Position numbers and translations under genes: made by a program. 64,000 nucleotides of DNA, from sequence record PP301341.1. The stretch is one strand, 5' to 3'. Source of the stretch: Escherichia phage UE-S5b. Below, one piece after another: positions 2,431 through 64,000 of this stretch. Positions within the stretch are counted from its first letter, which is position 1; each line of letters begins with the position of its first letter. The notes under the pieces are model-generated. The model did no database searches and was not told the origin of the DNA. It saw nothing but the letters and a program-made list of their open reading frames with translations.

Positions 2431-2446
2431 CTATTAATAATATTTC

Positions 2447-19700: not shown

Positions 19701-22700
19701 CCACTCAAAAAGTAGCTGAAACTAAAACGGAAATGGAAACAGTTTTCCCTGTCTATAACAATGACAAGACACCGAACCAGTTCCTGAAATCATTTACCCT
19801 GCCGGAAGAACCTAAGTCTCGCACCATTGGTTCTGAATCCCCTTTGACTGATATTAAGCAAGCACTGTCTTCTACTGCACGCTTTGAAGCATTCACTCAA
19901 AAAGAAAATAACGCTCTCACAAGTGATGTGATTAAGCGTTATCAGGACTTAATGGGCTTTGGTGAAACTCTGAAGACTACTCTGTCTGATCGTCTGGCTA
20001 AGTTTCTTGCTAATAAGAACGTTGGTAAACGCTTTGCAGAAGGCACAGAGGCTAACCGTTGGGTAGGTGGTAAGTTACTTAATATCGTAGAGAAAGACGG
20101 AGACACCTTTAAGTTCAATGACCAGTTGTTAGAGACTGCTGTACTTGCTGGTCTGCAATGGCGACTGACTGCTACACAGAATGCTGCTGTTAAAGACATG
20201 AAAGATGTAGCTGCTATTACTGGAGTAGAAGCATCCTTGTTACCTGAAGGTATCCTGGCTGAATTTGAGAATGCTCAGACTCTGGTTGAAGCTACTAACT
20301 CACTGGCTCAAAAGATTGAATCTTACTGGGGATTGAATCGTAATCCTAATGCACCACTGGGTTATACCAAAGGTATTCCAATGGCAATGGCTACAGAGAT
20401 TCTGTCTTCTCTCATTGAGATGGGTGAAGTTAAAGAGTCTATGCTTGATGTGTCTGAGATTGACCCAGACTCTAATAAGACCGTCGGTCTGTATACCATT
20501 GAGAAGCTGGATGATAACGATGCCATTAACAAGTTCCCTACTGCTATCGAGGAAGCTGTTCTCGTAGAACCAGAAGAGAAAATGTACTTTGGTGATGATA
20601 TTCCTTCCGTGGCTCAAACTCAGTTACGTAACCCTGCTGTTAAGAATACCCCAGAGCAGAAAGCTGCTCTTAAAGCAGAACAGGCTACCGAGTTCCGTGT
20701 ACACATGCCGATGGTTAACTTCTATGAAGCATTAGGTCGTGACAACATTCTGGAACTGATGGGTGCTGGTACTCTTAATCCTGAACTGCTGAACGTGAAC
20801 ACTGCTAAGTCACTGGAGGGTAAAAACCTGTCAGTGTCTATGGCATATGATTCCCTGTTCGGTGTAATCAACCAGTTACAGGAACAGGAGAATGGTCTGG
20901 ATACGCCTATTCACTATGGTTACAACATGACCCGTGTAGGTCGTATGCAGATGTTAGGTAAGAACAACCCACAGTCCAGCAAGCTGGTTCGTGAAGCAAT
21001 TCTGCCAACCTTCTCTACTATCGACTTAAGTAATGAAAACAGTCAGACGTTCTCTGATTTCCAGTTAGGTCTGTCTCAGGCATTAGGTATCAAGGTTCAT
21101 AATATGTCCCGTGAAGCTATGTCTGAAAAACTGACCAAAGCTCTGGAAGGTAATTTGAAACCTGCTGTTGATATGATGGTTGAGTTTGATAAGTCCGGGC
21201 ACTTACCAGCCGATGCAGTAGATATTCTTAAGACATCTCTGGGTGGTGATAAATCATTCGTAGCTCTTATGGCTCTTATGGAGTATGCCCGTTACCTGAA
21301 CAGTGATGACCGTGCCAACTTTAATACCCCACTGTACGTTGAAGCCGATGGTGTAACCAACGGACCAATCAACGCAATGGTATTAATGACTGGTGGTAAG
21401 TTCACTTCAGACTGGATTAAGAATACTGCTAAAGGTGGTCTGTTCTTCGGTAAAGCTGGTAAGACTATGAATGAACATCGTTCACAGGATGACAGTGTTG
21501 ACCTGTATGAAGCATCTACCAATGGTCTGCAACAAGCACTTAATGAGTTACGTACTACTTACCGTAACAACGTTCCGGTTATGAACCAAATGAATCATCT
21601 TCAGAAGTTAATGGACCTGTTTATTAAAGACTTTAACCTGAATGAAGACGGTACTCTGGACCTGAAACGTGGTATCGCTAAAAACCCACTGACCATTACC
21701 ATCTATGGTTCAGGTGCTCGTGGTATTGCTGGCAAGATGGTTAGTGCAATTACTGACACCATCTATGAACGATTCAGTGATGTTCTGCAAGCTCGTGCTG
21801 CTGACCCTAGTATTTCCCCAGCTATGGCAATGTTTGGTAAGGAGGCTGCGTCTGAGGCTGATGCTCAGGCTATGCTGGATACTTTCCTTACTTCTATGGA
21901 AGCACTGACTGGTAATGTTCCAGTTATGCGTAAAGGTGAATTGTCTATTCAACAGGTAGAAGGTGCTCTGACTGGTAAGTTAGACCCTCAGAAGTTTACC
22001 GTATCGGGTAATGCCCTGAAGAACTTACAAGAGAACATGCTTCACCTGTTCGTTGAACCAATGCGTACTGGTATCCGGAATACTGTTGGGGAAGGTCTGA
22101 TGCATTCTACTGAGAACTTGCAGAAGGCTACCCAGATTCAGTCTTTGGTTCTACAAGACATGTTCCAACAAGCAGTACAGGCTAAGCTGGCAGAAAAAGA
22201 AAAAGACCCAACCTGGAAGAAGGGTGATTTCTTAACACAGAAAGAACTGAATGAAATTCAGGAATCATTGTCTCCACTGGCTCCAATGATTGAGACTGGT
22301 TCACAGACTTTCTATATTGCTGGTAGTGAGAATACTGATGTTGCTAACCAGGTACTGGCTACCAACTTAGATGACCGTATGCGTGTGCCAATGAGCATCT
22401 ATGCTCCTTCTCAGGCAGGCGTTGCAGGTATTCCATTTATGACCATTGGCACTGGTGATGGCATGATGATGCAGACCCTTTCTACTATGAAAGGTGCTCC
22501 GAAGAATACCCTGAAAATCTTTGATGGTATGAACATTGGTATCAACAACATCACTGATGCAAGTCGTAAAGCTAACGAGGCTGTATACACTTCCTGGCAG
22601 GGTAACCCTATCAAGAATGTTTATGAGTCTTTTACTAAGTTCATGAAGAACGTAGACTTCAGCAAACTATCTGATGAAACCAAACAGGCTATCGCTAAAT

Positions 22701-25700
22701 CTGCTCTGGAATATGACCAGCGTGAAGGTGCTACCGATGACCTGTTACGTGTTGGTGCTGAACAGATTGAACGTAACCTGCGTAATATTGCTCTGGGTGT
22801 AGATATTCGTCACAAAGTAATGAACCAGGTACAGACTACTGTTGACCAGATGGCTGCTGTTGGTGCTCCTTATGTGAACAACGGTAAAATCTCTCTGGAA
22901 GGTCTGACCGTAGACCAACAAGTAGCTAAGCTAAATGAACTGTTCGATGCTGAATTAAACAAACGTCGTGATGCAGTACGTGCTGCTAAAGTAGAACCAG
23001 TGAAAGAAGTGCCAGCAATGGAACAGGTTGGTCGTGTACTGAAGTCTGGTGTACGCCTACTGTCTAATACTGCTATCTCTAAGCTGGCTAAAGAGATGTC
23101 TCCGGAACAGCAAGCAGTACTGAAAGAAGTACAGAAATCCCTTGCTGCTAAAGACTATAAGGTTGTTTACGGTACACCTTCCCAACTGGATGCTTATGCT
23201 ATTGAGAAGAATATTACTCGCCCAGCACCAGAAGATATTGAAGCTGCTGAAGCTGGTAATGCGTATGGTTGGACTAACTTTGAAGATAAGACCATCTACT
23301 TAGTTACCCCTTCCTTAGAGACTCTGGTTCATGAATTGGTGCATGCTTCTACTTTTGAATCTGTACTGGCTCACTATGAGGGTACTCCTAATGAAGCGGT
23401 CCAGAACATTGAAGACCTGATGAACCAGTTCCGTGCTCTGGATGTTAAGGATGAATCCCCGGCAGTTCGGGAAGCATATGCAGATGCTCTTAATACTATT
23501 AACGGTCATTTATCTAATGGCTTTATTGAGCCAGCAATGGCTAAAGCTGCTGCACTGAATGAGTACATGGCATGGGGTTTAACCAACCGTGAACTGATTA
23601 GTAAGCAGAAGAAAACCACTGCACTTAAGACTATGGTTCAGGCTGTATATGAAGCAATTAAACGTCTGGTATTCGGGCGTAAGAAAGCACCAGCTAATGC
23701 AGATGATATGTTCTCTGGCTTACTGTTTAACTCGTCCGTAGTTATGCGTGGGCAAGCTCCTACTGCTGCTGTAGCCAAAGATACTACTCTGTTCCATAAC
23801 AAAACGTATGGTGACAATACTCGTCTGGAAGAGCTAGGGAAAACCTTCGATAAACTGATTACTGACTACATTGGTTCTGAACCAGTACAGCAAGTAATTC
23901 GTAAAGGTAAGTTCTCTGATGCAGTGGTTAATGCGACTAAAGTAACTCGTGATGTTCAGGCTCATGGCTTCACTATGAATATGCAGGAACAACGTCTCTT
24001 TACTAACATTGTTGCTGCTCTGGCTACTGAGGCTGCTATTAATCCTGCTGCTCTGGCTCGTGCGCAGGAATACTACACACATGTTACTAAGAACCTGACC
24101 GTTGAGTCATTCATGNCTGACCCAGATAGTACTAACCCTGCTGACCGTTACTATGCACAGCAGAAGTTCGATACCATCATGGGTGCTAACAACATTGAGT
24201 TTGATTCACAAGGTCGTTCCTCCTTACTGCCTACCTTTATTGGTCTGGCGATGGTAAGTGAAGAGGTACGTAAAGTGCTGGCTGATATTCCAGTTATGAA
24301 AGTAGACAAGAAATCTGGCAATACCGCTGATGCAATGCTGACTAACATCGGTACTGCTGCAATGGCTAGTCTGAATGCTCGTGTAGCAGGAGATACTAAA
24401 GCTACCAACGTACAGGAAGGTATGGATGCACTGGCTCAGACAATCATGCAGACCAGTCTTAATGCACAATCCTTCTATGATTCCGTTGCTACTCCTACGG
24501 GTAATGCTATTGATCGTGCTAACCAGTATCTGGTGGACTCTATTGATGTACTGTCTACCCGTGCTTTAGAAGGTGCTCGTGAAGTTGCAGCTAATACCAA
24601 GAACCCGTTGGTTAAAGGTGCTGCCCATGCTGCACAATTAATAGCTGCTATTGCTACAGAGAAGAATGGTGCAATCGTAGCCGAAGGTGTTATGGCTGCA
24701 ATGAACCAGGGTAAGGTATGGCAACCTTTCCATGACCTGGTTAATGACTTAACTGGTCGTACTAAGAGCAATGCTTCTGTATATGATTTGATTAAAGCAG
24801 TGCGTGCACAGGTACAGGCTGACCGTCAACAGTTCCGTGAACATCTGCCCACCACTATTGCATCTAAGTTCAGCCGTAAGCTTACTAATGATGAGTGGAA
24901 AGCAATGCATACCGGTATGGGTAAAACCGACTTAGCTGTTCTGCGTGACACTATGTCTCTGGGTGAAATTCGTGACTTGCTGACTGACCAAAAGATTGTT
25001 GACCGTGAAGTGAATAAGCTGGAAGCAGATTTGCAGAAACAAGCAGGACGTAACTGGCCTTTGATTAGCCGTAAATCTAAGCAACTGGCTCAGTACATGA
25101 TTAATGGCACAGTTGGTAATAACTTGCTGCGTAATGCTACTGCAATCTCTCGTATGCTGGGTGAACGACAGGCTGCACGTTCTACTGTAGACGTAGCTCA
25201 ACTGGATAAACTGATTACTCTGTATGCACTGGAAGCAATGAGTAAGACTGACCGTGAGATGTTATCTTCACTGGCTCAATCAGAGATTGAAGGCATGGAC
25301 TTCGCTACTTCTTATCTGGTTGGTCAGCGTAAAGATGAAATGGCTAAAGCCAAATCTGATACTCGTGCAACTCTGAACCAGTACAAAGGGTATATTCCTG
25401 GTGAGACTAAACAGGGTGTTAACTTGATTGTTGCTGAAGATAGTCAGTTTGCTGATTTGATTGAGAAGTCCTATGTACGTCTGGGTACTTATCAGGGTAG
25501 CTCTGCTAATCGTGGTCCAGCACGTAGCTACTACTTTGCACCGGTACAGGCACAGGCTCCATTCTCGCAAGGTATCTTACAGAACGTTCGCAATACTGCT
25601 GGTGGTGTAGACCTTGGTACAGGCTTTACGATGGGTACAATGGTAGCTGGTCGTATCACTGACAAGCCTTCTGTAGACCGTATCACTAAAGCACTGGCTC

Positions 25701-27133
25701 GCGGTGAACGTGGTAATGAACCACTGCTGCCTGTATATGATGATAAAGGCAATGTGGTTGCTTATGAGCAATCTATTGACCCTAACATGCTGAAGCACAT
25801 TGAGGGTGAGAACCATCTCGCTCGTGCAATCGGTGTATGGCGTGGTCGTCAGGTAGAGGAAGCTAAGGCTCAGCGTTTCAACGATATGCTGATTGAGAAC
25901 CTGCATAGCATGTATAAAAACGACATTAAAATGTCTGCCTCTAACAAGTCACAGTACGTTAACCTTCTTGGTTCTAAACTGGACCCAGTAACTGCTGATG
26001 CCCTTAAGCTGATGAACAGTGAAACTCGTCAGAAAGCAGAAAGTCTGTTTGGTCCTGGTGAGTTGTGGGTACGTCGTGACATGCTGAATGATGCACTGGG
26101 CTATCGTGCAGCTTCCGTAGGTGATGCCTGGTCTGGCAATTCTCGTTGGTCACCAGAAACACTGGATACCTTCAAGAAAGCTATGTTGGGTGTATTCGGC
26201 AACCGTGCTTATAAGTATGTAATGGGTGGTGAGAACCTGGTTCAAAACTTAGTTAAAGAAGCCAAAACTCTGATTGTAGTTAAGTCAGTAGTTGTTCCTG
26301 CTGTTAACTTCCTGGCTAACCTTTACCAGATGGTTGGTCGTGGTGTACCTGTTAAGAACATTGCTAAGAGCATTCCACAGAAGACTGCTGAGATTAACCA
26401 GTACCTGAAATCTCGTCTGCGTCAGGTAGATGCAGAAGCAGANTTACGTGCAGCTACTAACCCGAACCAGATTCGTAAGCTTAAGGCTGAAATTCAGTCC
26501 ATCACTGATAGTCATAAGCGTATGAGTATCTGGCCTCTGTTAGAAGCTGGTGAGTTTTCTTCAATTGCAGATGCTGGTATTGGACGAGATGACATCCTGA
26601 TTACTGAAGGTAAACTTCACGAATACATGGATAAACTGGCTGATAAGTTACCTAAGTCTGTACGTAATGCTGGACGTTATGCCCTTATCACCAAGGATAC
26701 TGCTTTATTCCAGGGTATCCAGAAGACGGTTGAGTACTCTGACTTTATTGCTAAAGCAATCATCTATGATGATTTGACTCAGCGTAAAGGTAAGACTCGT
26801 GAAGAAGCACTTGGACGTGTAACGGAAGAGTTCATTAACTATGACCGTCTGCCTGGTCGCTTCCGTGGGTATATGGAAAGTGTTGGTCTTATGTGGTTCT
26901 ATAACTTTAAGATTCGTTCTGCAAAAATTGCAGTATCCATGATTCGTAACAACCCGGTACACGCAGCTATGGCTATGTTGGCTCCAACTCCTACCATGTT
27001 TGGTAATGTTGGTTTACCTATTCAGGACAACATCTTCAGTATTGCTGCACAAGGCAATCTCGGTTACTCCTGGGGCTTCGGTCAGGGACTTCGTGCCCAT
27101 AACCTTAACCCTTGGCTCAATCTAGCTAACTAA
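16763..27133 (+). CDS. virion-encapsidated RNA polymerase (vRNAP, N4 gp50-like)
   Basis: Single 3456 aa ORF, the hallmark giant protein of N4-like phages; last gene of the late operon; contains T7-RNAP-like motif B-like segment (PLTITIYGSG). Three isolated N. Confidence 0.9.
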   Translation: MNRKHAMSTFDRLAGFADSITNAKQVDVSTATSQKQAAQGQSPSQLTPENAYNLQTGRVGNLGIGAFEPGSLQADFTQASPLEILNKYGNEQGLQILNSRANAADAVRQDLSKQRTNAEAFGDTLSGVGLGVANTLGGIAALGTGLVNDNAGASIASGMDWLNEGVHNLQSDALNATRKVVQNQNQISAQKNQKLYEEDIKNGESSLVASLSRIGRDAFDSVANTLDNGMAATDGLSEGVGSLFTGGPLIRGVSALGKVMVGGDKAVKGITLAAELGSRPAQVALSAGRVAAPAIAIGGMEAGGAYQQTASEIMKMSHQELASKSPVYQQHIADGLSPDEARRQTASETGIIAAGLTAPVAAATGPLVSKFELNPLKVGSLAGAGSNMLRETVEEGIQSGTSQFAQNKAIQGNVDAKRDLLKGVGEQAGLGALYGFGSAGVAQAPGTTVKAVGASAGPALRTTLAGASLVGSALAKAASPITNILVQRGEEVAKRNEQASPVSDATVNAAAQEATAQAEQAQATVQEAVDAMDISPEEKAAATQYAADLTQAMKFDPVELEQANPAIREAVSGSTNRVEAIQKMADLVNTAEDPNVQMEAAIQMYDNIMSMDSFINRDPGALANLEQGSPAANIVDQFSGLMANVQNTPKVLRAFRAIHSMIQEQAEAGKLKATEEANQAQANNIAMAADMSPEVLDADSVNMVLKHASEGKITLGNRQRAALQSAAALLQGAREFDAKAEELGLRPQDIVSKQIKTDESRSNEGQYSALQHAKRIRSAYNSGNFDLASAYLDDFMKFAQHMQNKVGALNEHLISGNADKNKSVHYQALTPSREWVRSRTGLGVNPYDTKSVKFAQQVGLEAKTVADIANALATAYPELNVSHVKVTPLDSRLDKPAAQVVKEFRQGGLDATQSQQTNEPVNQVDETPAPAQETTTTVQPKAKPVVENKTVPVKEASSKAEEVSTTKSETVDATLTNEDTTQKVAETKTEMETVFPVYNNDKTPNQFLKSFTLPEEPKSRTIGSESPLTDIKQALSSTARFEAFTQKENNALTSDVIKRYQDLMGFGETLKTTLSDRLAKFLANKNVGKRFAEGTEANRWVGGKLLNIVEKDGDTFKFNDQLLETAVLAGLQWRLTATQNAAVKDMKDVAAITGVEASLLPEGILAEFENAQTLVEATNSLAQKIESYWGLNRNPNAPLGYTKGIPMAMATEILSSLIEMGEVKESMLDVSEIDPDSNKTVGLYTIEKLDDNDAINKFPTAIEEAVLVEPEEKMYFGDDIPSVAQTQLRNPAVKNTPEQKAALKAEQATEFRVHMPMVNFYEALGRDNILELMGAGTLNPELLNVNTAKSLEGKNLSVSMAYDSLFGVINQLQEQENGLDTPIHYGYNMTRVGRMQMLGKNNPQSSKLVREAILPTFSTIDLSNENSQTFSDFQLGLSQALGIKVHNMSREAMSEKLTKALEGNLKPAVDMMVEFDKSGHLPADAVDILKTSLGGDKSFVALMALMEYARYLNSDDRANFNTPLYVEADGVTNGPINAMVLMTGGKFTSDWIKNTAKGGLFFGKAGKTMNEHRSQDDSVDLYEASTNGLQQALNELRTTYRNNVPVMNQMNHLQKLMDLFIKDFNLNEDGTLDLKRGIAKNPLTITIYGSGARGIAGKMVSAITDTIYERFSDVLQARAADPSISPAMAMFGKEAASEADAQAMLDTFLTSMEALTGNVPVMRKGELSIQQVEGALTGKLDPQKFTVSGNALKNLQENMLHLFVEPMRTGIRNTVGEGLMHSTENLQKATQIQSLVLQDMFQQAVQAKLAEKEKDPTWKKGDFLTQKELNEIQESLSPLAPMIETGSQTFYIAGSENTDVANQVLATNLDDRMRVPMSIYAPSQAGVAGIPFMTIGTGDGMMMQTLSTMKGAPKNTLKIFDGMNIGINNITDASRKANEAVYTSWQGNPIKNVYESFTKFMKNVDFSKLSDETKQAIAKSALEYDQREGATDDLLRVGAEQIERNLRNIALGVDIRHKVMNQVQTTVDQMAAVGAPYVNNGKISLEGLTVDQQVAKLNELFDAELNKRRDAVRAAKVEPVKEVPAMEQVGRVLKSGVRLLSNTAISKLAKEMSPEQQAVLKEVQKSLAAKDYKVVYGTPSQLDAYAIEKNITRPAPEDIEAAEAGNAYGWTNFEDKTIYLVTPSLETLVHELVHASTFESVLAHYEGTPNEAVQNIEDLMNQFRALDVKDESPAVREAYADALNTINGHLSNGFIEPAMAKAAALNEYMAWGLTNRELISKQKKTTALKTMVQAVYEAIKRLVFGRKKAPANADDMFSGLLFNSSVVMRGQAPTAAVAKDTTLFHNKTYGDNTRLEELGKTFDKLITDYIGSEPVQQVIRKGKFSDAVVNATKVTRDVQAHGFTMNMQEQRLFTNIVAALATEAAINPAALARAQEYYTHVTKNLTVESFMXDPDSTNPADRYYAQQKFDTIMGANNIEFDSQGRSSLLPTFIGLAMVSEEVRKVLADIPVMKVDKKSGNTADAMLTNIGTAAMASLNARVAGDTKATNVQEGMDALAQTIMQTSLNAQSFYDSVATPTGNAIDRANQYLVDSIDVLSTRALEGAREVAANTKNPLVKGAAHAAQLIAAIATEKNGAIVAEGVMAAMNQGKVWQPFHDLVNDLTGRTKSNASVYDLIKAVRAQVQADRQQFREHLPTTIASKFSRKLTNDEWKAMHTGMGKTDLAVLRDTMSLGEIRDLLTDQKIVDREVNKLEADLQKQAGRNWPLISRKSKQLAQYMINGTVGNNLLRNATAISRMLGERQAARSTVDVAQLDKLITLYALEAMSKTDREMLSSLAQSEIEGMDFATSYLVGQRKDEMAKAKSDTRATLNQYKGYIPGETKQGVNLIVAEDSQFADLIEKSYVRLGTYQGSSANRGPARSYYFAPVQAQAPFSQGILQNVRNTAGGVDLGTGFTMGTMVAGRITDKPSVDRITKALARGERGNEPLLPVYDDKGNVVAYEQSIDPNMLKHIEGENHLARAIGVWRGRQVEEAKAQRFNDMLIENLHSMYKNDIKMSASNKSQYVNLLGSKLDPVTADALKLMNSETRQKAESLFGPGELWVRRDMLNDALGYRAASVGDAWSGNSRWSPETLDTFKKAMLGVFGNRAYKYVMGGENLVQNLVKEAKTLIVVKSVVVPAVNFLANLYQMVGRGVPVKNIAKSIPQKTAEINQYLKSRLRQVDAEAXLRAATNPNQIRKLKAEIQSITDSHKRMSIWPLLEAGEFSSIADAGIGRDDILITEGKLHEYMDKLADKLPKSVRNAGRYALITKDTALFQGIQKTVEYSDFIAKAIIYDDLTQRKGKTREEALGRVTEEFINYDRLPGRFRGYMESVGLMWFYNFKIRSAKIAVSMIRNNPVHAAMAMLAPTPTMFGNVGLPIQDNIFSIAAQGNLGYSWGFGQGLRAHNLNPWLNLAN

Positions 27134-54254: not shown

Positions 54255-54288
54255 TTACTTACTCTCCTAAAGTTAATGGAATTACTAA

Positions 54289-55058: not shown

Positions 55059-55243
55059 TTTTTCTCCGGTACGAACTGCATTACACAGTTTTGATTACGA
55101 GGGATATTCAATTCACATTCATGCTTGAGGGTTTGTGTTACAGAATTTGGAGTAGAACCAAAGTAGGTATTAGAAATAGCTACAAATCCTGCACCTAATA
55201 AACCGCCTAGTAAGAATGAGAAAAATGCAATCTCTTTATACAT
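55055..55243 (-). CDS. small membrane protein
   Basis: 62 aa, one hydrophobic helix FFSFLLGGLLGAGFVAI. Confidence 0.4.
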   Translation of the reverse strand: MYKEIAFFSFLLGGLLGAGFVAISNTYFGSTPNSVTQTLKHECELNIPRNQNCVMQFVPEKK

Positions 55244-55268
55244 TTCCTGGCTCCAGAATGTTTAAGTC

Positions 55269-55298
55269 AAAAAAAGACCTCCCTTCATCTGGGAGGTC
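55269..55298 (-). terminator. rho-independent terminator
   Basis: GACCTCCC-TTCATCT-GGGAGGTC with A-run on +. Confidence 0.55.
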
Positions 55299-55348
55299 AA
55301 GCTTGGGAGTTTTATATCAGGGTTTACAACCCCAAATAAAGGCTACCT

Positions 55349-56182: not shown

Positions 56183-56229
56183 ATGAATTTCCTCATAAGT
56201 AAATAGCAGGATTAGTATACATGACATGT

Positions 56230-56258
56230 AAAAAAATAAACCCTCCGTTAAGAGGGTT
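56230..56258 (-). terminator. rho-independent terminator
   Basis: AACCCTC-CGTTAA-GAGGGTT with flanking A/T runs. Confidence 0.5.
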
Positions 56259-56454
56259 AGTTGTTTACACAGTAGATAGCAAAAGCTATCCATCCTGCCA
56301 TTACAAAGCATCCTAGTGAGTATGCTCCATAGTAGCAGTAAGCAAACTTAGACTTGTGGGCACGAACTATCGTAGCCAGAATCAGTACAGATAAAACTAT
56401 CAGTATTAGCTGAGAGATTACTTCAAAATTGATAAGCATAGTTGCTACCTCCAA
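56257..56454 (-). CDS. small membrane protein
   Basis: 65 aa, two hydrophobic helices. Confidence 0.4.
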   Translation of the reverse strand: MEVATMLINFEVISQLILIVLSVLILATIVRAHKSKFAYCYYGAYSLGCFVMAGWIAFAIYCVNN

Positions 56455-56497
56455 GCAAAAAATAAAGCCCCACTCCCGAAGGAATGAGGCTAGTTTA

Positions 56498-57715
56498 TTA
56501 ACTTAATGCATAATCTGTTTCTAGAATGTCTTGCCAGAGGCTGTCATCCAGCTTACCAGCAGAGAACTCTTGTCCCAGTACTTGAGACAGAATGAAGCCC
56601 AGTAAGTCACTCTTAGCAATGTCAGACAGAATCTGATTGTACTGACGACGCAGGTCATTACCATAGTTAGGGTGGCAACGGAAGCAATCATGTACAGTCA
56701 TTACAGGGAATGGTTTCTTAGGCATAGTGTCGATCATATCTGCTACTACTTGACGGTCTACCAATGCAATAGTATTCGGGTCAAGGAAGTCTAGGATAGA
56801 TAGCGACAGGAATCCTGACCTTTCATAATGATTCCAGATTTCCATAGTCTTCTCTTGGTTCCCCTCAATAACGGGGTATTCACTTGGCCCGATATCGCAC
56901 AGTTCCCGTACATAGGCAACCAGTTTAGGGTCGAAGTTACAACGACGCAGCATCTCACGTACTACCATCCCATCAATAGAGTGAGTGATGTTAGCAGAGA
57001 GCATACGGGTCTTCTCTTCAGTACCCTGAACCATACGAGTGATGTCAAATGGTTTACCCAAGAAGTTAACAGTCTGTACTTCAAGAACCATGACTTTAAT
57101 GACAGCATGGAAGTTGTCAGGGAGTACCCATATGTAACGGTTAGCATCCGGGTTACCACATTGCAGTAAGAACTTGTTAAGTGCCCAAGGACCACTTGCA
57201 ACTGTTTCCATTACATTTTCAAAAGTCTTGAGACGGATACCTTCCCCGAATACTTCTTTAGGTTTGGCTTCTGAACCGTAGAATGCAGTCATAACTGCCT
57301 GCTTGGTATCACTACGTTTAATACGGGATGCTTCACCAAGGATGTCCAGCATCTTGTGATATATAACTGTATAAGCATCACGTCGTAATGGCTTACCATT
57401 CTCTCCCATGTAATTAACTACGTTACACAGTTCAGCAGCAGAGCGGTCACCAGTCAGGCAGGCCAGTAACTGCAAGCCTGATGATGTAGCATCCAGGGCT
57501 ACGGCATATCCGATAGGCTTACCTGCTTTCATATCTTTCCATGCGTTTATGCCAGCATAGAATAGTGCAGATTCCTCAGCTTCATCTACCAGATTAAGCA
57601 AGTTAGCTTCATTCTCATCGAACCAAGCAATACGCTCATTCCAGGTCTTTTTATCCAGACCATAGTTATTGGCGATATCTACTTTCAGGTATTCACGAGC
57701 GGTTAACAGTTGCAT
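56498..57715 (-). CDS. RNA polymerase II large (catalytic) subunit, T7-like single-subunit RNAP C-terminal half (N4 gp16-like)
   Basis: 405 aa; T7 RNAP motif A-like ALDATSSGLQ, motif B-like K..VMTAFYGS, motif C-like VHDCF. Confidence 0.8.
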   Translation of the reverse strand: MQLLTAREYLKVDIANNYGLDKKTWNERIAWFDENEANLLNLVDEAEESALFYAGINAWKDMKAGKPIGYAVALDATSSGLQLLACLTGDRSAAELCNVVNYMGENGKPLRRDAYTVIYHKMLDILGEASRIKRSDTKQAVMTAFYGSEAKPKEVFGEGIRLKTFENVMETVASGPWALNKFLLQCGNPDANRYIWVLPDNFHAVIKVMVLEVQTVNFLGKPFDITRMVQGTEEKTRMLSANITHSIDGMVVREMLRRCNFDPKLVAYVRELCDIGPSEYPVIEGNQEKTMEIWNHYERSGFLSLSILDFLDPNTIALVDRQVVADMIDTMPKKPFPVMTVHDCFRCHPNYGNDLRRQYNQILSDIAKSDLLGFILSQVLGQEFSAGKLDDSLWQDILETDYALS

Positions 57716-57772
57716 TTTATGTTCCTTTTGCTTCTTGGCTCCTCACTATGAAGAGCCTGCTTATTGGATGGA

Positions 57773-58012
57773 TTAGCCAGCATTAAATGATGACAATACT
57801 ATTCCTGGTTCCACACCTTCTGTGGCAATACCCAGGTACTCGACGTGCACTTTATCAGGGGAAGAACACCAAGCGGAAGATAGATTCCATTCTCCGTCTG
57901 GATTAATAAGGCGAGCTTCTTCCTTAGTTGTAGTAGCTACCACTGCGGAATCGTATGTATCCCATCCTGTATTCTCTTCCTGGCTAATGAGCCATAGTTT
58001 TAACCTACTCAT
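57773..58012 (-). CDS. hypothetical small protein
   Basis: 79 aa ORF between the two RNAP II genes. Confidence 0.35.
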   Translation of the reverse strand: MSRLKLWLISQEENTGWDTYDSAVVATTTKEEARLINPDGEWNLSSAWCSSPDKVHVEYLGIATEGVEPGIVLSSFNAG

Positions 58013-58823
58013 CGTTTACTAACTCCTTATCAGCGAACTCCAGTACAGCTTTGTTGTAGCTGGTTCCCTGATAGTTGATGTGATAGCCCTGAGCGTAAGT
58101 ACGCCCACGTTTGTCATATTTGTGACCCAGTGAGAAGTTATTACCTTCTTTGGTCACTAACTCCATTACTTCCTTAGCAGTACGGCTGTACTTCTCAAAG
58201 GCTTTAACACGTTTCTCATATTCCTGACGGGTTTCACCCTCTTTGGGNTTATCCATATTAGGACGAGAGTCTTTTACATAGTTAGCAACGTCCCAGTTNA
58301 TNCTTAGACGNTGATTATTCATACGGTTGATGTGATCAAGACAGACATCCATCTCATGATGGTTCTTCTTGAGGATGATACTTCCCCTGCTCTCGTAGTA
58401 ACCTGTATCACGGTTACACAGAACAGGCTTAGGAGCACTTACGATAGGTAATGGATACTGGAATGCTTCCAGTTCCATCTGAACATCTTCACTAATCTCG
58501 TAGATAACACCGAACTTGTCGATGGTAGGGTCATAGTTGAAGCAGTCATTCTCTGCCATCTTATACAGACAGTCAGCGATGTACTGAGCATCATCTGAAT
58601 GGCTCATAAGAGAGCCAATCATAGTCTGAAGGTCAGCACGTTTATGTAGGGCAATCTGCACCATTGCATCAATGAGCAGCTTATAATCAATTTCCAAATA
58701 GGCAGCGAATGCCTTAAAGTCAATTTCTTCGGAGTCCTCAAATTCCTTCCTCATGCGAGGGAGTAATTGATTTTTGTTGAAAAGAATTTCGAGTTGCTTC
58801 TGATGTTCAATGGATGAGTACAT
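58005..58823 (-). CDS. RNA polymerase II small subunit, T7-like RNAP N-terminal half (N4 gp15-like)
   Basis: 272 aa, immediately upstream of the catalytic subunit; AGGAGA Shine-Dalgarno; size matches N4 gp15; contains several N. Confidence 0.6.
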   Translation of the reverse strand: MYSSIEHQKQLEILFNKNQLLPRMRKEFEDSEEIDFKAFAAYLEIDYKLLIDAMVQIALHKRADLQTMIGSLMSHSDDAQYIADCLYKMAENDCFNYDPTIDKFGVIYEISEDVQMELEAFQYPLPIVSAPKPVLCNRDTGYYESRGSIILKKNHHEMDVCLDHINRMNNXRLXXNWDVANYVKDSRPNMDXPKEGETRQEYEKRVKAFEKYSRTAKEVMELVTKEGNNFSLGHKYDKRGRTYAQGYHINYQGTSYNKAVLEFADKELVNDE

Positions 58824-58854
58824 CGCTTATTCTCCTAAATGTGATTAATAACCA

Positions 58855-58869
58855 AAAGCTGCGGAGCAG
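58855..58869 (-). promoter_or_regulatory. vRNAP-type early promoter hairpin (N4 P-like)
   Basis: Template (+) strand CCAAAAG-AGCTGC-GGA-GCAGCT: 6 bp stem, 3 nt GGA loop, 32 nt upstream of the RNAP II small-subunit start. Confidence 0.6.
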
Positions 58870-58876
58870 CTATTAC

Positions 58877-59137
58877 CTAACGTTTAGTCCAAAAGGTAAT
58901 ACGAATACTGTTCTCTTGACCAAGGTAGTCAATACGTACATATAAACCATTACCACTAAACTCGTTATTTTTCTTCTGGTAAGGCCATACCAGACTACGC
59001 ATAGGTATTTTAATTAAACCAGATATGTGACCTAGTTTAGTACGATCCTTTAGTTCGTTTTGTAATGCACAATAGATATCATGCCGTGTAAGTGCTCTGG
59101 CTCTGACTTGAGCAGTCCACAGTTCTTCATAAGTCAT
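58877..59137 (-). CDS. hypothetical small early protein
   Basis: 86 aa ORF. Confidence 0.4.
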   Translation of the reverse strand: MTYEELWTAQVRARALTRHDIYCALQNELKDRTKLGHISGLIKIPMRSLVWPYQKKNNEFSGNGLYVRIDYLGQENSIRITFWTKR

Positions 59138-59139
59138 TA

Positions 59140-59490
59140 TTAACTCCAGTAGTTGTAAGCATCGCCTAAGTGTTTACGCCATGCTTCGGGTAACAGTACA
59201 TTTCCGGTTACATTAATGAACTGGTATGGGTCCAGGTAGTCATTACTCATGACTTTGAAATCCCATTGTGGATTGGCAGATGCATAAGCAATAAAGCCCT
59301 CAATGAAGCCATAGATAGCACCCTCTTTGATACGGTTACCATTGCCATCTCTTACTGGAATAGCAAAGCTATTACCATAATGACCATAGGCCATACCCCA
59401 ACGAGCACCATGCTTCTTATAAGCTAACTTGGCAGAAGCATTGGTATGTTGTCCTAGTGTATTGGTAGTGAATACGAATATTTCTTTCAT
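59140..59490 (-). CDS. hypothetical early protein (possible Rossmann-like nucleotide-binding fold)
   Basis: 116 aa ORF; domain guess is weak. Confidence 0.4.
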   Translation of the reverse strand: MKEIFVFTTNTLGQHTNASAKLAYKKHGARWGMAYGHYGNSFAIPVRDGNGNRIKEGAIYGFIEGFIAYASANPQWDFKVMSNDYLDPYQFINVTGNVLLPEAWRKHLGDAYNYWS

Positions 59491-59493
59491 TAG

Positions 59494-59874
59494 TTACCCC
59501 TTTGGATTCTCCACAAAGTAGTTATACATAGCTTTTACTAGCTTCTCTTTAATAACCTCACCATGACATGGTTTCGGATAACAGAAGCACTGTAAGGCCA
59601 ACCCTTTCTCATCAATGGCTTTATTACCAAGACGATTAAGTTCATCCAATACAGCTTGATTCTTCCTCATGATTTGTTCATTAAGCCATACTCGATATTT
59701 GGTTATAACCTGTTCTCTTGAACCGTCTTTACCAATAACGAATGGATTTCCTAATGGTGAACCACGTCCGATATACTCACCGGATTTACCGTGATGTTTA
59801 TTAACAATGATAATTGGACGTGCAGCTACACCCAGCAAAGCATTGGTGTCGTCCCCTAATGTAATAGTCTTCAT
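59494..59874 (-). CDS. DUF4326-like protein
   Basis: RGSPLGNPF and C-terminal CFCYPKPCHGEV motif resembling the DUF4326 pattern. Confidence 0.5.
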   Translation of the reverse strand: MKTITLGDDTNALLGVAARPIIIVNKHHGKSGEYIGRGSPLGNPFVIGKDGSREQVITKYRVWLNEQIMRKNQAVLDELNRLGNKAIDEKGLALQCFCYPKPCHGEVIKEKLVKAMYNYFVENPKG

Positions 59875-60113
59875 GGTTTTAATGCCTCAATAGATGTACT
59901 TACTTTACATACAGTAGTTCCTTCTAATGCGTCTATTTTGTAAGCTAACCCTCTTGTTAACATTACCCCGTTCATTACTTTATTAACCTCTTCTAGGTTA
60001 GGTACAGAAAATGCTTCATTTAATACGGGAGTTGTATGCCAATCTATATAATCATCCGGCATAGCTATAAAATCATCCCCCTTTTTGAATACATAATATT
60101 CTTCATAAATCAT
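59871..60113 (-). CDS. hypothetical small early protein
   Basis: 80 aa ORF. Confidence 0.4.
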   Translation of the reverse strand: MIYEEYYVFKKGDDFIAMPDDYIDWHTTPVLNEAFSVPNLEEVNKVMNGVMLTRGLAYKIDALEGTTVCKVSTSIEALKP

Positions 60114-60424
60114 GGCTTAAGTACCTGGAATGCGAACACAGGACGTTTACTACGCCACTGGTTCATAGCTAGTTCACTAGTTTCAGAACCATCATGTAAG
60201 TTATAAATGAATGAGATTACATAGTCTGGTTCTTCCGGGAAGTTCTCTGTAGAGAATGGTAGACCTGATTCTTTAAGGATAGGAACCAGTGGAGATTCAG
60301 CATTGCAGTAGAGGGTAAATTCTTCATTGAATGCCTGGCTTGTTTGAGATACATAATCAATATTACGCATCATTTTATCTACATCTGTAAATGTAGAATC
60401 ATGAACTACTAGAATAGTTTTCAT
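60110..60424 (-). CDS. hypothetical early protein
   Basis: 104 aa ORF. Confidence 0.4.
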   Translation of the reverse strand: MKTILVVHDSTFTDVDKMMRNIDYVSQTSQAFNEEFTLYCNAESPLVPILKESGLPFSTENFPEEPDYVISFIYNLHDGSETSELAMNQWRSKRPVFAFQVLKP

Positions 60425-60675
60425 ACCTTTCTCAATGTCCCATAGATGTTATTATCGACAATACTCAAATCACAAAAACCAATTTCTTCTTGTCTCCCAG
60501 AGGATACCCAGATATTGTTTTCTGTTAGCTTAGGCTTCTTAGAGAATCCTATTAATGAGGTATTAGCACTTTTATATTGACGTGGTAATAAAGCTATATA
60601 CTTAACCCAGTGAGGTACTTGAATGGTGTGCTTCATATATTCCACAGTCTTGCCTGTAGGATATGTAATAATCAT
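60421..60675 (-). CDS. hypothetical small early protein
   Basis: 84 aa ORF. Confidence 0.4.
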   Translation of the reverse strand: MIITYPTGKTVEYMKHTIQVPHWVKYIALLPRQYKSANTSLIGFSKKPKLTENNIWVSSGRQEEIGFCDLSIVDNNIYGTLRKV

Positions 60676-61032
60676 TTAGTACCTCACAACGTATACGGGT
60701 TTATTAAGCCTATACATGATATCAATCATGTGCTTGGTTCCTTTGGAATTACCATCCCAGAAACATACAGCAGCATCTGCAAATTCACCCATTTCCAGGT
60801 TACGTTTATAACCAGCACATTTACCATGTTTATCCCAGTTTGCTGGGAAATTATGAATAGGCATTTTGTTATTAGCCCATAGACTATATGCAAGCATATC
60901 TGCTCCACGAGCCATACCACATACTAATTCCGGACATTCAGGTATATTCCCTGAATTTACTAACTTCTGTAATTCCTCAATCATAAGATTGGTATTTACG
61001 AAGTCTCTTCCACCAGCTACGATTAGTCTCAT
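60676..61032 (-). CDS. SLOG/DUF2493-like Rossmann-fold protein (predicted nucleotide-binding)
   Basis: IVAGGRDF and VCGMARGAD glycine-rich motifs; 118 aa. Confidence 0.45.
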   Translation of the reverse strand: MRLIVAGGRDFVNTNLMIEELQKLVNSGNIPECPELVCGMARGADMLAYSLWANNKMPIHNFPANWDKHGKCAGYKRNLEMGEFADAAVCFWDGNSKGTKHMIDIMYRLNKPVYVVRY

Positions 61033-61250
61033 TTCTGATACCCCTGTATATAGTTAATACGGCGAATACGTTGAGTAGATGCCTTAACAGCCATCTGTTG
61101 ATTTTCTTCTTTACGCTGGTTTTCCAACAGCTTATCCCATTCTTTCTGGTTCCGTTGTTTCTGTAATATACGACTACAACGCTTATGATTAGCAACTCCT
61201 TTACGTTTGTTACATACAGGGCAAACACCATAATCAGTTGAGTACATCAT
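61029..61250 (-). CDS. small basic protein with CxxC zinc-ribbon-like motif
   Basis: 73 aa; GVCPVCNKRKG. Confidence 0.4.
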   Translation of the reverse strand: MMYSTDYGVCPVCNKRKGVANHKRCSRILQKQRNQKEWDKLLENQRKEENQQMAVKASTQRIRRINYIQGYQK

Positions 61251-61251
61251 T

Positions 61252-61497
61252 TTAGTTGAATCCGTAATAGTTAAAGTAAGGAGCCTTTCTGTCTTCAGTT
61301 GATTTGATAATCACTGATTCATCTAGAAAATACATCTCATTATTAATACGTACTTCTCTGTAAGATAACTTACCAAAGTTACGTATATATACCTTTCTAA
61401 CATATACCTTACGGGTATGCTTTAGCATGAACCAGGCATACCCTTTGGGATTTACTAATATTGTTTTATCTACGATGACATCACTAAGATTGTTCAC
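61252..61497 (-). CDS. hypothetical small early protein
   Basis: 81 aa ORF. Confidence 0.4.
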   Translation of the reverse strand: MNNLSDVIVDKTILVNPKGYAWFMLKHTRKVYVRKVYIRNFGKLSYREVRINNEMYFLDESVIIKSTEDRKAPYFNYYGFN

Positions 61498-61798
61498 CGA
61501 GTGCCTCCATCAGTATTTTACGAATAACGTTAACATCAGATTCAGTACCAATTAAACCAACAGGTTTACCTGTACTATCAGTTACAAAGCCAGCAATCCT
61601 TTCCATCTCTGCTGTAATTAACTTGTCACCATTAATAAGACGATTACGAAGGTAAGCTTCATAAGCTACCTCTATATCTTCTACTGTGGTTCTTTCATTA
61701 CGAGCAAATGGATTACTTAATGGGAATGGTAAATGTACCCGTATATTCCTGTCAGCTACTTTAGCTTGGTGAGGAAGTATACATACTATTTCATTCAA
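61484..61798 (-). CDS. hypothetical early protein
   Basis: 104 aa ORF. Confidence 0.4.
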   Translation of the reverse strand: MNEIVCILPHQAKVADRNIRVHLPFPLSNPFARNERTTVEDIEVAYEAYLRNRLINGDKLITAEMERIAGFVTDSTGKPVGLIGTESDVNVIRKILMEALGEQS

Positions 61799-62169
61799 GA
61801 TTATTTCTCCTATTTAAATACATATCTAACTATTCAAAAATAAAAAATAGGAGCCTCCTATTGGAGGACTCCTTACTATTTGATACATGGATGATTGTAA
61901 GTAACAATCTTACGTACTGGTTCAGATGTCTGTTGCTTAGCAGCCAGACGTTCCTTCATCTTCTGTACGTCAGCTTTGGTTCCCATGATTAATGACTTAC
62001 GCATGTTTGGTACTCCACATAAAGTTAAAAGGCTTGTTGTTGTTACGTACAATTCTTACAACCATTTGATAGCCATTGAGTTGTACAACACCATAGTGTC
62101 GTTTCTGTACACCAGTGTGATATCTACGAAAGATACATTCTTCAATGGCATCCTCAATGTTAGTGAATA

Positions 62170-62388
62170 TCACTGGTTCCTCTTTGCAAACTCTTCTGCT
62201 TCTTTAGCCCAGAGTTGCTTACGTACCTCTTTAGCTATGATGGAAGCAAACAGACACTTAACGAATACAACTGGTAACTTACAAATAAGTACCAGCTTAG
62301 TTCTTACCCACTTGGCTCCATTGAGAATGTAACCACGTAGGCGATACAGCACATAACAGAGTATTACAAACGCAATGAAGTCCAACAT
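62170..62388 (-). CDS. small membrane protein
   Basis: 72 aa; N-terminal hydrophobic helix FIAFVILCYVLYRL. Confidence 0.4.
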   Translation of the reverse strand: MLDFIAFVILCYVLYRLRGYILNGAKWVRTKLVLICKLPVVFVKCLFASIIAKEVRKQLWAKEAEEFAKRNQ

Positions 62389-62392
62389 AGTC

Positions 62393-62578
62393 TTACACCT
62401 TATGAAGTTTACGGATTTGTTTACGAGTAGGTTTAGCTACAAAGAAGTGGTCATAATGCTGACCATTCTTATCTTCTACAGATACCTGCCAACGAGCATT
62501 AAGAGACATCTTACTACCCCAAGGTTGTAACATAACAATCAACTTTTGTGAGTTATAACGGTTACATACTGTACGCAT
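62393..62578 (-). CDS. hypothetical small early protein
   Basis: 61 aa ORF. Confidence 0.35.
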   Translation of the reverse strand: MRTVCNRYNSQKLIVMLQPWGSKMSLNARWQVSVEDKNGQHYDHFFVAKPTRKQIRKLHKV

Positions 62579-62682
62579 AATGGTTACTCCTTCATCTAAT
62601 ATAAATCTATATCTATCTGGTTACTGTTTCAGTACCCTTCGTCTAAAGATACTCAAAAAGTAGAAATAGATTATCGTCTAGT

Positions 62683-62711
62683 TAAAAATAAAAGACTCCC
62701 CGAAGGGAGTC
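62683..62711 (-). terminator. rho-independent terminator
   Basis: GACTCCC-CGAA-GGGAGTC preceded on + by an A-run (U-run on -). Confidence 0.55.
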
Positions 62712-62721
62712 TAGTGGTTGA

Positions 62722-63106
62722 TTAGAAAGTCAGTTTACGAGCATATTTATTCTCGTCTGCTGGGATGTCAGCAGCCTCTGCTTTCACACGACGAAGTTGA
62801 ACTTGCAGGTTAATGATACCTTCTTCACCTGGTTCCAGGTTCTGAGCATATTCAATTAACTGTTCCAACAGGTCGTTCTGTGCACAACGCATAGCACGGA
62901 AGTCAGCATTGCTGCTATTAGTAGGCAGCGGCTCCTGAGTATCCAAAGGAATACCAGTAGGCAATGAGATGAATTTCTCATCATCAGAGCCTTCATTAGC
63001 TACATAACCAATGTTCAGCCAGAACTGAGCTTTAGGCTTATCAGTTTTAGCAGTAGAAGTAGCAGCAGCGTTAGATTGACCGAAAGTGAATTTTTGAATA
63101 GACATT
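62722..63106 (-). CDS. hypothetical early protein
   Basis: ATG at 63106 preceded by GGAGAG; track start at 63204 would give a weak 33 aa extension. Confidence 0.45.
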
Positions 63107-63217
63107 TTGTACTCTCCAGATAAATGATTGTTTGATTTATGGGTTTGTCCGTCGGTGACTAAACCCAAGAAAAGACTTAAGATTTCAATGATTAGTGGAT
63201 GCATTTAAATCATCCAT

Positions 63218-63234
63218 AAGACGCGGAGCGTCTT
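63218..63234 (-). promoter_or_regulatory. vRNAP-type early promoter hairpin (N4 P-like)
   Basis: Template (+) strand CCATAAG-ACGC-GGA-GCGTCTT: 7 bp stem, 3 nt GGA loop, upstream of gene 62722-63106. Confidence 0.6.
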
Positions 63235-63238
63235 GGTT

Positions 63239-63442
63239 TTAACTGTTATTAGGTCGGTGCTGTTTGATAGCTTTAAGCAAGGCTATCATGTCATCAATTT
63301 CTTTCTCGTTAAGTTTCCATAATATGGAATCCCCATCAGGGTAACCTTTAGCGGAACCATGATTCACGAGAACTACCCCGTCTACAATTGCTCCAAATAG
63401 TTTTCCTCTTTGGATAGCAATCTTCTCTATGTTAAATGCCAT
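63239..63442 (-). CDS. hypothetical small early protein
   Basis: 67 aa ORF. Confidence 0.4.
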   Translation of the reverse strand: MAFNIEKIAIQRGKLFGAIVDGVVLVNHGSAKGYPDGDSILWKLNEKEIDDMIALLKAIKQHRPNNS

Positions 63443-63534
63443 AAATAGGATTCTCTTAAAGTAGAATAACTATCTACTTTTGACTATCTATCTAATGTTC
63501 AAAACAGGAGACTCCGAAGAGCCTCCTAGGTGAC

Positions 63535-63858
63535 TTAGTTTTTAGTCAGGATGTCAATTACTTTTGAATATTCTGCGTTATAGATACGAGCGTTTTCTTT
63601 ATCCTTACAGAATTCTTCAATACTTTTCTTACGCAGAGTCTCAGTCATAGCTGTCTCCTCTGCCAGTTTATTAACAAAGGTATGCATTTCTAATTTAGTA
63701 CGGATGGCTTGTTTCTCTGCCATAGTACTTACATATGAATTAAGCATACCTACTGCTTTAGTTGCTGTACCGAATGTATCTGCAACAGTAGTAGCAGCTG
63801 AGTTAACAGTACCAAGTAAAGTTCCTGCGGTCATACGTACAGTAGCTTGAGTAGTCAT
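63535..63858 (-). CDS. hypothetical early protein
   Basis: 107 aa ORF; no clear Shine-Dalgarno. Confidence 0.4.
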   Translation of the reverse strand: MTTQATVRMTAGTLLGTVNSAATTVADTFGTATKAVGMLNSYVSTMAEKQAIRTKLEMHTFVNKLAEETAMTETLRKKSIEEFCKDKENARIYNAEYSKVIDILTKN

Positions 63859-63900
63859 GATGATAGCTCCAATAGTTGATGATAGGACGACATGTCCATA

Positions 63901-63915
63901 ACATGCGGAGCATGT
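63901..63915 (-). promoter_or_regulatory. vRNAP-type early promoter hairpin (N4 P-like)
   Basis: Template (+) strand CCATAAC-ATGC-GGA-GCATGT: 6 bp stem, 3 nt GGA loop, 43 nt upstream of gene 63535-63858. Confidence 0.55.
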
Positions 63916-64000
63916 GTAACGTGTAAGGTGGGGTAGGGTAGTGGCTACACCGTCAACATACCGGGGGGGNTNGTTGAGTGTAAGGGTGTAGCCCCAGCCA

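Follow-up and report, generated by a model that had tools for sequence, protein, structure and literature searches.

Three hairpins with GGA loops at the entering genome end of Escherichia phage UE-S5b are very probably early promoters for the virion RNA polymerase (vRNAP) that enters the cell together with the phage DNA, and they correspond to promoters P3, P2 and P1 of phage N4 (probability about 0.92). The window, i.e., the whole 64,000-nt stretch of record PP301341.1 that was analysed, comes from a G7C-like, N4-related coliphage of the genus Gamaleyavirus and runs in reverse orientation; it ends at the genome terminus, and its end aligns with the left terminus of N4. A first-pass annotation of the same DNA had put this reading forward, and it is supported by the architecture of the sites, by N4 counterparts at orthologous positions, by covariation of the stems through compensatory changes, by restriction of the motif to the early region and, there, to the template strand, and by intact recognition residues in the polymerase.

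Architecture of the hairpins and their N4 counterparts

All three hairpins announced earlier are present on the + strand, which is the template strand, and only the first had to be moved, by 2 nt, from 58855-58869 to 58857-58871. Site 1, the predicted P3-type promoter (58852..58871), consists of CC (+2/+1) at 58852-58853, an AAAA spacer and the hairpin AGCTGC-GGA-GCAGCT, with the loop centre (-11G) at 58864. Site 2, the predicted P2-type promoter (63214..63234), has CC at 63214-63215, the spacer ATAA, the hairpin AAGACGC-GGA-GCGTCTT at 63218-63234 and -11G at 63226; the last two A's of its spacer double as outer pairs of the stem. Site 3, the predicted P1-type promoter (63896..63915), has CC at 63896-63897, the spacer ATAA, the hairpin ACATGC-GGA-GCATGT at 63901-63915 and -11G at 63908, and lies inside the terminal repeat about 100 nt off the genome terminus. 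The stems are perfect (6, 7 and 6 bp), the loops have 3 nt, and the free energies of the DNA folds are -5.7 kcal/mol (z = -3.0), -6.9 kcal/mol (z = -4.4) and -4.7 kcal/mol (z = -2.6) for sites 1, 2 and 3, respectively.

As described in the first-pass annotation, the GGA loop on the template strand, the C:G closing pair and the CCA(A/T)AA 5' flank are seen at every site, together with a GCGGAGC heptamer, a 4-nt spacer, -8G and -9C (3/3 each). The CC lies 11-12 nt 5' of the loop centre at 3/3 sites, as it does in N4 P1-P3, by a test of sequence alone. All sites are intergenic and upstream of genes on the - strand; the distances from hairpin edge to ATG, 33, 13 and 42 nt, come close to the 15-45 nt originally proposed, and the gp15 homolog has its ATG 30 nt downstream of the site 1 element.

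Sites 1, 2 and 3 precede the homologs of gp15, gp2 and gp1, which is where N4 has P3, P2 and P1. The N4 early promoters (PMC4496689, reviewing Haynes & Rothman-Denes 1985 and Glucksmann et al. 1992) are template-strand hairpins with a 5-7 bp stem, a 3-nt G-purine-A loop, the heptamer GCG(G/A)AGC, a 4-nt A/T spacer and CC at +1/+2. They are defined by a GC-rich heptamer that is centred at -11 between inverted repeats, a loop that begins with G, ends with A and is closed by a C:G pair, -8G, -9C, a 4-nt ruler and a distance of eight nt from -8 to +1 (PMC4496689); all of these features were found at sites 1-3. The N4 genome record gives P1 as CCATAAGTTGCGAAGCAAC, P2 as CCAAAAGAAGCGGAGCTTC and P3 as CCAAAAGCTGCGGAGCAGCT, upstream of gp1, gp2 and gp15, and the version of P2 given in the first-pass annotation, CCAAAAGAAGC-GGA-GCTTC, agrees with this record and with a published P2 oligonucleotide (PMC13492108).

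The alignment proposed with N4 P1-P3 revealed equal loop-to-CC spacing throughout. Site 1 is identical to P3 (20/20 nt), while sites 2 and 3 differ from their counterparts by compensatory stem changes. Compared with P2 (AAGAAGC-GGA-GCTTCTT), site 2 has one compensated stem pair, C:G for A:T, and the spacer ATAA for AAAA; its 11-nt leader GGAUGAUUUAA-AUG is the counterpart of the N4 gp2 leader GGAUGAAGUA-AUG. Site 3 shares the flanks ACATGTCCATAA and GTGTAACGT with P1, differs from it in two stem pairs changed on both sides (GTTGC/GCAAC to CATGC/GCATG), and has the loop GGA where P1 has GAA. The N4 promoters have been tested for function, whereas the window sites are known from their sequence. 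N4 likewise carries three copies at the entering genome end; the window has an extra 67-aa ORF between gp1 and the P2-type site. The N4 left end did not match the right end of its GenBank record, which thus gives no second copy of P1. The record of phage PBM-3, the nearest public genome, does contain a terminal-repeat copy, and site 3 is expected to recur beyond the window, in the terminal repeat there.

Predicted early units and terminator-like hairpins

The genes downstream of the sites were assigned by tblastn with N4 proteins, and all lie on the - strand. The first gene downstream of site 3 is the gp1 homolog (107 aa, 63535..63858; N4 gp1 (154-465), 67% identity, E = 3e-45). Site 2 is followed by the homolog of gp2 (160 aa, 62722..63204; N4 gp2 (586-1068), 68% identity, E = 2e-74), which in N4 is the RNAPII cofactor. 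Site 1 stands directly before the RNAPII genes, as had been noticed for one of the hairpins: the gp15 homolog, the small subunit (272 aa, 58005..58823; 66% identity, E = 3e-122), annotated 'RNA polymerase RNAP1' in PBM-3, and the gp16 homolog, the large subunit (405 aa, 56498..57715; 68% identity, E = 0), which is the final gene of the predicted P3 unit.

Leftward transcripts would start at 58853 (site 1), 63215 (site 2) and 63897 (site 3). The P1 unit would comprise gp1 and would end at a terminator-like hairpin after this gene (63500..63527, - strand; AGGAGGCUC-UUCG-GAGUCUCCU then GUUUUG), which was read directly and is absent from the list of the terminator scan; N4 gp1 is followed by a similar element. 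The P2 unit would cover gp2 with read-through into small early genes. The consensus scan placed a terminator-like hairpin with a T-rich tail after the gp2 homolog (62693..62712, - strand). The P3 unit would deliver both RNAPII subunits, gp15 and gp16, and its likely end is a hairpin of 11 pairs followed by TTATTTTTTG after the gp16 homolog (56466..56491, - strand), found by the same scan.

The consensus terminator scan also flags site 1 on the - strand (AGCUGCUCCGCAGCU then UUUGGUUAUU) and site 2 on the + strand, which raises two further readings. Site 1 could be bifunctional, serving as a vRNAP promoter on the DNA template strand and as an attenuator in RNA arriving from upstream; we regard this addition as improbable, though not far-fetched. 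If true, the site 1 RNA (AGCUGCUCCGCAGCU then UUUUGG) would attenuate read-through from the P2 unit and insulate the expression of RNAPII. It is much harder to maintain that the hairpins are intrinsic terminators or attenuators in the RNA of leftward early transcripts instead of promoters. There is no gene upstream of site 3, because the genome terminus is only about 100 nt away, and the coding strand after sites 2 and 3 reads UUAUGG with no U-run; a short tract, U4, is seen at site 1 alone. None of sites 1-3 combines the GC-rich hairpin, direct U-run and unit end by which intrinsic terminators are recognized. An invariant asymmetric GGA loop, a distance of exactly 12 nt from CC to the loop centre and a fixed 4-nt spacer are not terminator features, and separate, much stronger terminator-like hairpins stand after gp1, gp2 and gp16.

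Conservation, covariation and rarity of the motif

Across genera, the sites recur at orthologous positions and their stems covary. In counts that pooled the window, N4 and related loci (16 related loci), all three extra stem pairs accompanied 55/59 of the GCGRAGC cores on the template strand vs 1/16 on the opposite strand. These unselected counts are the fair test of pairing. Among 32 distinct sites, the variable stem pairs underwent 4, 19 and 15 double-sided changes, and the covariation score was 0.484 vs 0.106 in shuffles and at most 0.126 with a slid partner; the covariation set was preselected on three paired stem positions, so its 100% pairing is in part a product of this selection. The core columns are invariant in the 32 distinct sites of the relatives except for G/A at the loop centre, and the CC start is kept at 31/32.

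This pattern bears on the idea that the palindromes are duplex-DNA operators for a dimeric phage or host regulator, as near-perfect palindromes of 15-17 bp just upstream of genes could be. Operators keep sequence and not pairing, whereas the outer stem bases here vary freely and are always compensated. Moreover, it is invariably the template strand, never its complement, that reads GGA at the non-palindromic centre, and the sequence equals that of experimentally defined N4 promoters, which makes an operator role very improbable.

The copy number of the promoters among close relatives is three in some and four in others, and their P3-type hairpin is located either ~40 nt or ~275-300 nt upstream of gp15. 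These shifts suggest that small early ORFs may come and go as units beside hairpin promoters. For Klebsiella phage KP8, putative promoters P1-P4 with the same motif as in the window have been listed (PMC6950046, Table 1), all of them computational predictions only; reverse-complementing the putative P2, AAGACGCTCCGCGTCTTATGGA (PMC6950046), gives exactly the sequence of site 2, and P4 precedes the gp15 homolog, as does site 1. KP8 and several other relatives have four copies, in contrast to the three in the window.

Within the window, CCAWAA-NNN-GCGGAGC fits all three sites, and a search of both strands of the 64 kb with the pattern CCAWAANNNGCGGAGC, allowing at most one mismatch, returned 3 matches, which are sites 1-3. 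Although short hairpins are frequent (110 perfect ones per strand when the loop is set to 3 nt and the stem to 5 bp or more), which could favour palindromes arising by chance and without function, this explanation is effectively refuted by the statistics (3 matches vs 0.07 expected, with at least 3 reached in 0/100 shuffles) and by the covarying sites at orthologous positions across genera, and we consider it the least probable of all.

On the + strand of the 64 kb, sites 1-3 alone combine a GGA loop with a stem of 5 bp or longer. The first-pass annotation had stated that a motif equally common throughout the late and middle regions, or irrespective of strand, would speak against promoters; the motif is instead restricted to the early region and its template strand. 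Three other candidates were rejected as promoters: GAACT-GGA-AGTTC (- strand, 41137) is located within a gene and shows neither the GC core nor the flank, a fourth GCGGAGC heptamer at 49787 lacks a stem (1/3 pairs) and the CC flank, and AATAGC-AAA-GCTATT at 59359-59373 lies within an ORF and has A in place of G at -10. The region contains fewer matches to the host sigma-70 promoter consensus than expected (15 vs 28.4 +/- 5.3). An Rfam scan of 54000-64000 at the gathering threshold gave no matches, as expected for an element acting at the DNA level.

Predicted recognition by the virion polymerase and related systems

The predicted reader of the hairpins is a vRNAP of 3456 aa encoded at 16781..27133 on the + strand, identified by phmmer against solved structures; its ORF is listed from 16763, and the homology to residue 1 of N4 vRNAP starts at ORF residue 7. 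The structure matched was full-length N4 vRNAP (5024 bits, query 7-3455 vs chain 1-3499), and the polymerase domains are 71.5% identical. All residues that contact promoter bases in N4 are conserved; the protein keeps K114, R119, W129, K849, K850, D901 and R904, as well as the catalytic residues D559, D951 and Y678. One substitution counts against equivalence: N4 K267, which melts the stem base, is N in the window vRNAP.

[quoted passage not shown] Host gyrase, by negative supercoiling, would extrude the inverted repeat as a cruciform, and host SSB would melt the non-template hairpin, leaving the unusually stable GC-GGA-GC hairpin on the template strand. The vRNAP would then contact -11G through W129 and R119, -10G through K114, and -9C/-10G and -8G through D901 and R904. 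With the 4-nt A/T spacer as the ruler, GTP would be the first nucleotide of the transcript, placed opposite the template C that lies eight positions downstream of -8.

T7-type polymerases belong to the same single-subunit family and have a homologous specificity loop, intercalating hairpin and upstream recognition element; their promoters (-17 to +6) are read as duplex, whereas those in the window would be read as extruded single-stranded hairpins. A more distant genus of N4-like phages is represented by Pseudomonas phage LUZ7, for which early hairpin promoters were described (PMC3715699) and then confirmed by transcription-start mapping (PMC9163698). LUZ7 resembles the window in its 3-nt-loop hairpins in the early region and in a G start at a fixed distance from the hairpin centre; it differs in having stems of at least 4 bp, nine early starts, another core sequence and, unlike the window sites, a start 13-14 nt from the hairpin centre.

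Promoter features are absent from the public records for PBM-3 and for G7C, the type phage of the genus, and a literature search on Gamaleyavirus promoter hairpins found no paper, the G7C genome paper being outside its scope. Equivalent promoters are already published for related phages, so the novelty is low, and the sites do not change current knowledge of how such polymerases find promoters. Their main value lies in annotation: once marked, the three sites and the terminal-repeat copy would delimit the early transcription units in phages of the genus Gamaleyavirus. The comparison with relatives also provides a clean set of natural variation for the N4 promoter rules, in which the GCGRAGC core is invariant, the 4-nt A/T spacer is fixed, the CC start is almost always kept, and the outer stem is free to vary as long as it stays paired. 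Several Gamaleyavirus phages come from therapy-oriented isolation studies.

Probable hairpin promoters of the early region

The early region of phage UE-S5b carries three GGA-loop hairpins on the + strand, the template strand for the predicted leftward transcription, and we consider them predicted functional promoters of the virion RNA polymerase (vRNAP) with a probability of about 0.92. These are AGCTGC-GGA-GCAGCT (site 1, 58857-58871), AAGACGC-GGA-GCGTCTT (site 2, 63218-63234) and ACATGC-GGA-GCATGT (site 3, 63901-63915). The first-pass annotation, which proposed this interpretation, had described all three, and all are present in the sequence, although its position for site 1 (58855-58869) was 2 nt off; the 5' flank CCA(A/T)AA that it reported does precede every hairpin on the + strand. 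The promoter interpretation is supported by N4-identical features, orthologous genes, stem covariation and a cognate vRNAP in the window.

The sites share the pattern CC-WWAA-NNN-GCGGAGC-N'N'N', and a search of both strands of the window with CCAWAANNNGCGGAGC, allowing at most one mismatch, returned exactly sites 1-3, with 0.07 matches expected and none of 100 shuffles reaching three. Perfect hairpins with 3-nt loops and stems of 5 bp or more number 110 per strand in the window; of those on the + strand, only sites 1-3 have a GGA loop. Folded as single-stranded DNA, they reach -5.7 (z = -3.0), -6.9 (z = -4.4) and -4.7 kcal/mol (z = -2.6), respectively. Two other candidates were rejected: the single GGA-loop hairpin of the - strand (41137), which is intragenic and without the GC core, and a fourth GCGGAGC, without a stem, at 49787. 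The + strand hairpin AATAGC-AAA-GCTATT (59359-59373), located inside the ORF 59140-59490, shares the C:G closing pair and -8G/-9C with the three sites, yet its loop is AAA, and it is probably not a promoter because of the A at -10.

N4 is the textbook case of such hairpin promoters, thus the finding is the correct recognition of an already known element and its practical value lies in annotation; the PBM-3 and G7C records have no hairpin promoters annotated. Their prediction is routine in N4-like phages, with examples in LUZ7 and LIT1 (PMC3715699), in Pectobacterium phage CB1 (PMC6027278) and in Klebsiella phage KP8 (PMC6950046), where the published P2 has the sequence of site 2; those of LUZ7 were verified through start-site mapping (PMC9163698).

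Taken directly from NC_008720, the N4 template strand reads CCATAA-GTTGC-GAA-GCAAC at P1 (upstream of gp1), CCAAAA-GAAGC-GGA-GCTTC at P2 (gp2) and CCAAAA-GCTGC-GGA-GCAGC at P3 (gp15); the P2 sequence agrees with the one given in the first-pass annotation and with the oligonucleotide of a 2026 cryo-EM study (PMC13492108). Over 20 nt, site 1 and P3 have the same sequence, and site 2 departs from P2 by a double-sided change in one stem pair (A:T to C:G). At site 3 the P1 flanks ACATGTCCATAA and GTGTAACGT are retained, but two stem pairs carry double-sided changes and the loop is GGA instead of GAA. Conservation of the N4 promoters extends from -17 to +1 and includes a GC-rich heptamer that has its centre at -11 and lies between inverted repeats; the closing pair must be C:G, the loop has 5'G and 3'A, and the protein contacts the bases -11G, -10G, -9C and -8G. 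Four A's, whose bases are not contacted, serve as a ruler that places the start eight nt downstream of -8 (PMC4496689). All defining features listed in that work are present at sites 1-3. When N4 numbering is applied, the predicted template +1 C falls at 58853, 63215 and 63897 for sites 1, 2 and 3, with predicted leaders of 30, 11 and 39 nt; the short gp2 leader, GGAUGAUUUAA-AUG, resembles GGAUGAAGUA-AUG of N4. Homologs of gp1, gp2 and gp15 lie downstream of sites 3, 2 and 1, respectively, the gp15 homolog being followed by that of gp16; the early homologs share 66-68% amino-acid identity with N4 (E-values 3e-45 down to 0).

Stem covariation and the cognate polymerase

Viral contigs were scanned with the gp15 homolog, which yielded 20 loci, and the 16 with 53-96% gp15 identity were analysed as ±7 kb loci. 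On the early-region template strand, each bears between one and four hairpins built in this way, the single-hairpin loci either having only 1.5 kb of sequence upstream of gp15 or being from the most distant pair. Their stems are GCTGC, GGTGC, GCAGC, GACGC, GAAGC, CATGC, GTTGC, AACGC, GGCGC, GGGGC and GTGGC, and without selection for pairing all three outer pairs form at 55 of the 59 template-strand GCG(A/G)AGC cores compared with 1 of 16 on the opposite strand, the chance expectation being about 1 in 64. When 32 distinct sites were aligned, all shared the core G12-C13-G14, A16-G17-C18 and the +2 C. Double-sided changes number 4, 19 and 15 at the three variable stem pairs, and the covariation score of 0.484 compares with 0.106 after shuffling and no more than 0.126 when the partners are slid; this alignment was drawn from complete-stem sites, so it is the unselected counts that test pairing fairly. 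The spacer is always 4 nt long but variable in sequence (AAAA, ATAA, TAAA, TTTA, ACAA, GAAA), in agreement with the ruler idea.

Several relatives (L006/L026, which is G7C, L008, L011 and the KP8-like L014) have four hairpin promoters, not three, and in one G7C site (L006 position 512) the CC at +2/+1 is replaced by CG. In L004, L008, L009 and L014, about 275-300 nt instead of about 40 nt separate gp15 from the P3-type hairpin upstream of it, which implies that a small ORF was inserted there; the spacer in these relatives is changed to CCTAAA or CCTTAA.

The window encodes a vRNAP of 3456 aa (16763-27133; 5024 bits against full-length N4 vRNAP structures), with a polymerase domain 71.5% identical to that of N4. 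In mini-vRNAP numbering (full-length minus 997, checked on the N4 protein), the enzyme retains K114, R119, W129, K849, K850, D901 and R904, together with the catalytic D559, D951 and Y678. The sole changed promoter-contact residue is K267, which is N in the window (residue 1238); in N4 this intercalating-hairpin lysine helps to melt the base of a 7-bp stem.

Alternative readings of the hairpins

It is unlikely that the hairpins are instead terminators. The consensus scan finds site 1 terminator-like on the coding strand, where the hairpin is followed by UUUUGG. However, sites 2 and 3 lack a U-run, no gene lies upstream of site 3, and proper terminator-like hairpins sit elsewhere, after gp1 (63500-63527) and, in the consensus scan, after gp2 (62693-62712) and gp16 (56466-56491). 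Such hairpins are in excess in 54000-64000 (22 versus 5.2 ± 2.3 in shuffles), and sigma-70-like consensus matches there are fewer than in shuffles (15 versus 28.4 ± 5.3). Operators do not fit stems that are free in sequence but paired, nor a strand-asymmetric loop, and chance palindromes are excluded by the motif statistics and conservation. An Rfam scan of the early region gave no match.

Genome terminus and neighbouring genes

The phage belongs to the genus Gamaleyavirus (Schitoviridae, Enquatrovirinae); megablast of 56000-64000 gave 99% identity to Escherichia phages PBM-3, PBM-2, UE-M3 and UE-S5a and, among the matches listed, 86-93% to the G7C-like St11Ph5, IME11 and pSb-1. The window is reversed, with early genes leftward and its right end aligning to the N4 left terminus. 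Its last 401 bp (63600-64000) occur at both ends of PBM-3 (PV053165, 1-401 and 72532-72932), and on sequence grounds this segment, containing site 3, is a direct terminal repeat in that 99%-identical phage. The genome should therefore have a fourth promoter copy about 8.9 kb past the window's left edge, pointing toward the terminus, and since the repeat boundary lies inside gp1, the far end should carry this second P1-type promoter with a truncated gp1. The first 10.5 kb of PBM-3 contain no further promoter copy besides that of the repeat.

Adjoining the repeat boundary, 57 bp at the gp1 3' end (63533-63589) are missing from the PBM-3 record, through either an assembly artefact or a real deletion; IME11-like, pSb-1-like and other relatives have this segment. 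Ambiguous bases occur at 63970 and 63972, after a G7 run near the terminus; the window contains 64 N in total, with others elsewhere, e.g., near 3550. The putative gp1 terminator is separated from the P2-type promoter by a 67-aa ORF (63239-63442, - strand) for which N4 has no counterpart; as it lacks its own hairpin promoter, its expression would rely on read-through from P1. The gp15 and gp16 homologs have a 79-aa ORF (57773-58012, - strand) between them, where G7C has an HNH endonuclease and N4 has nothing.
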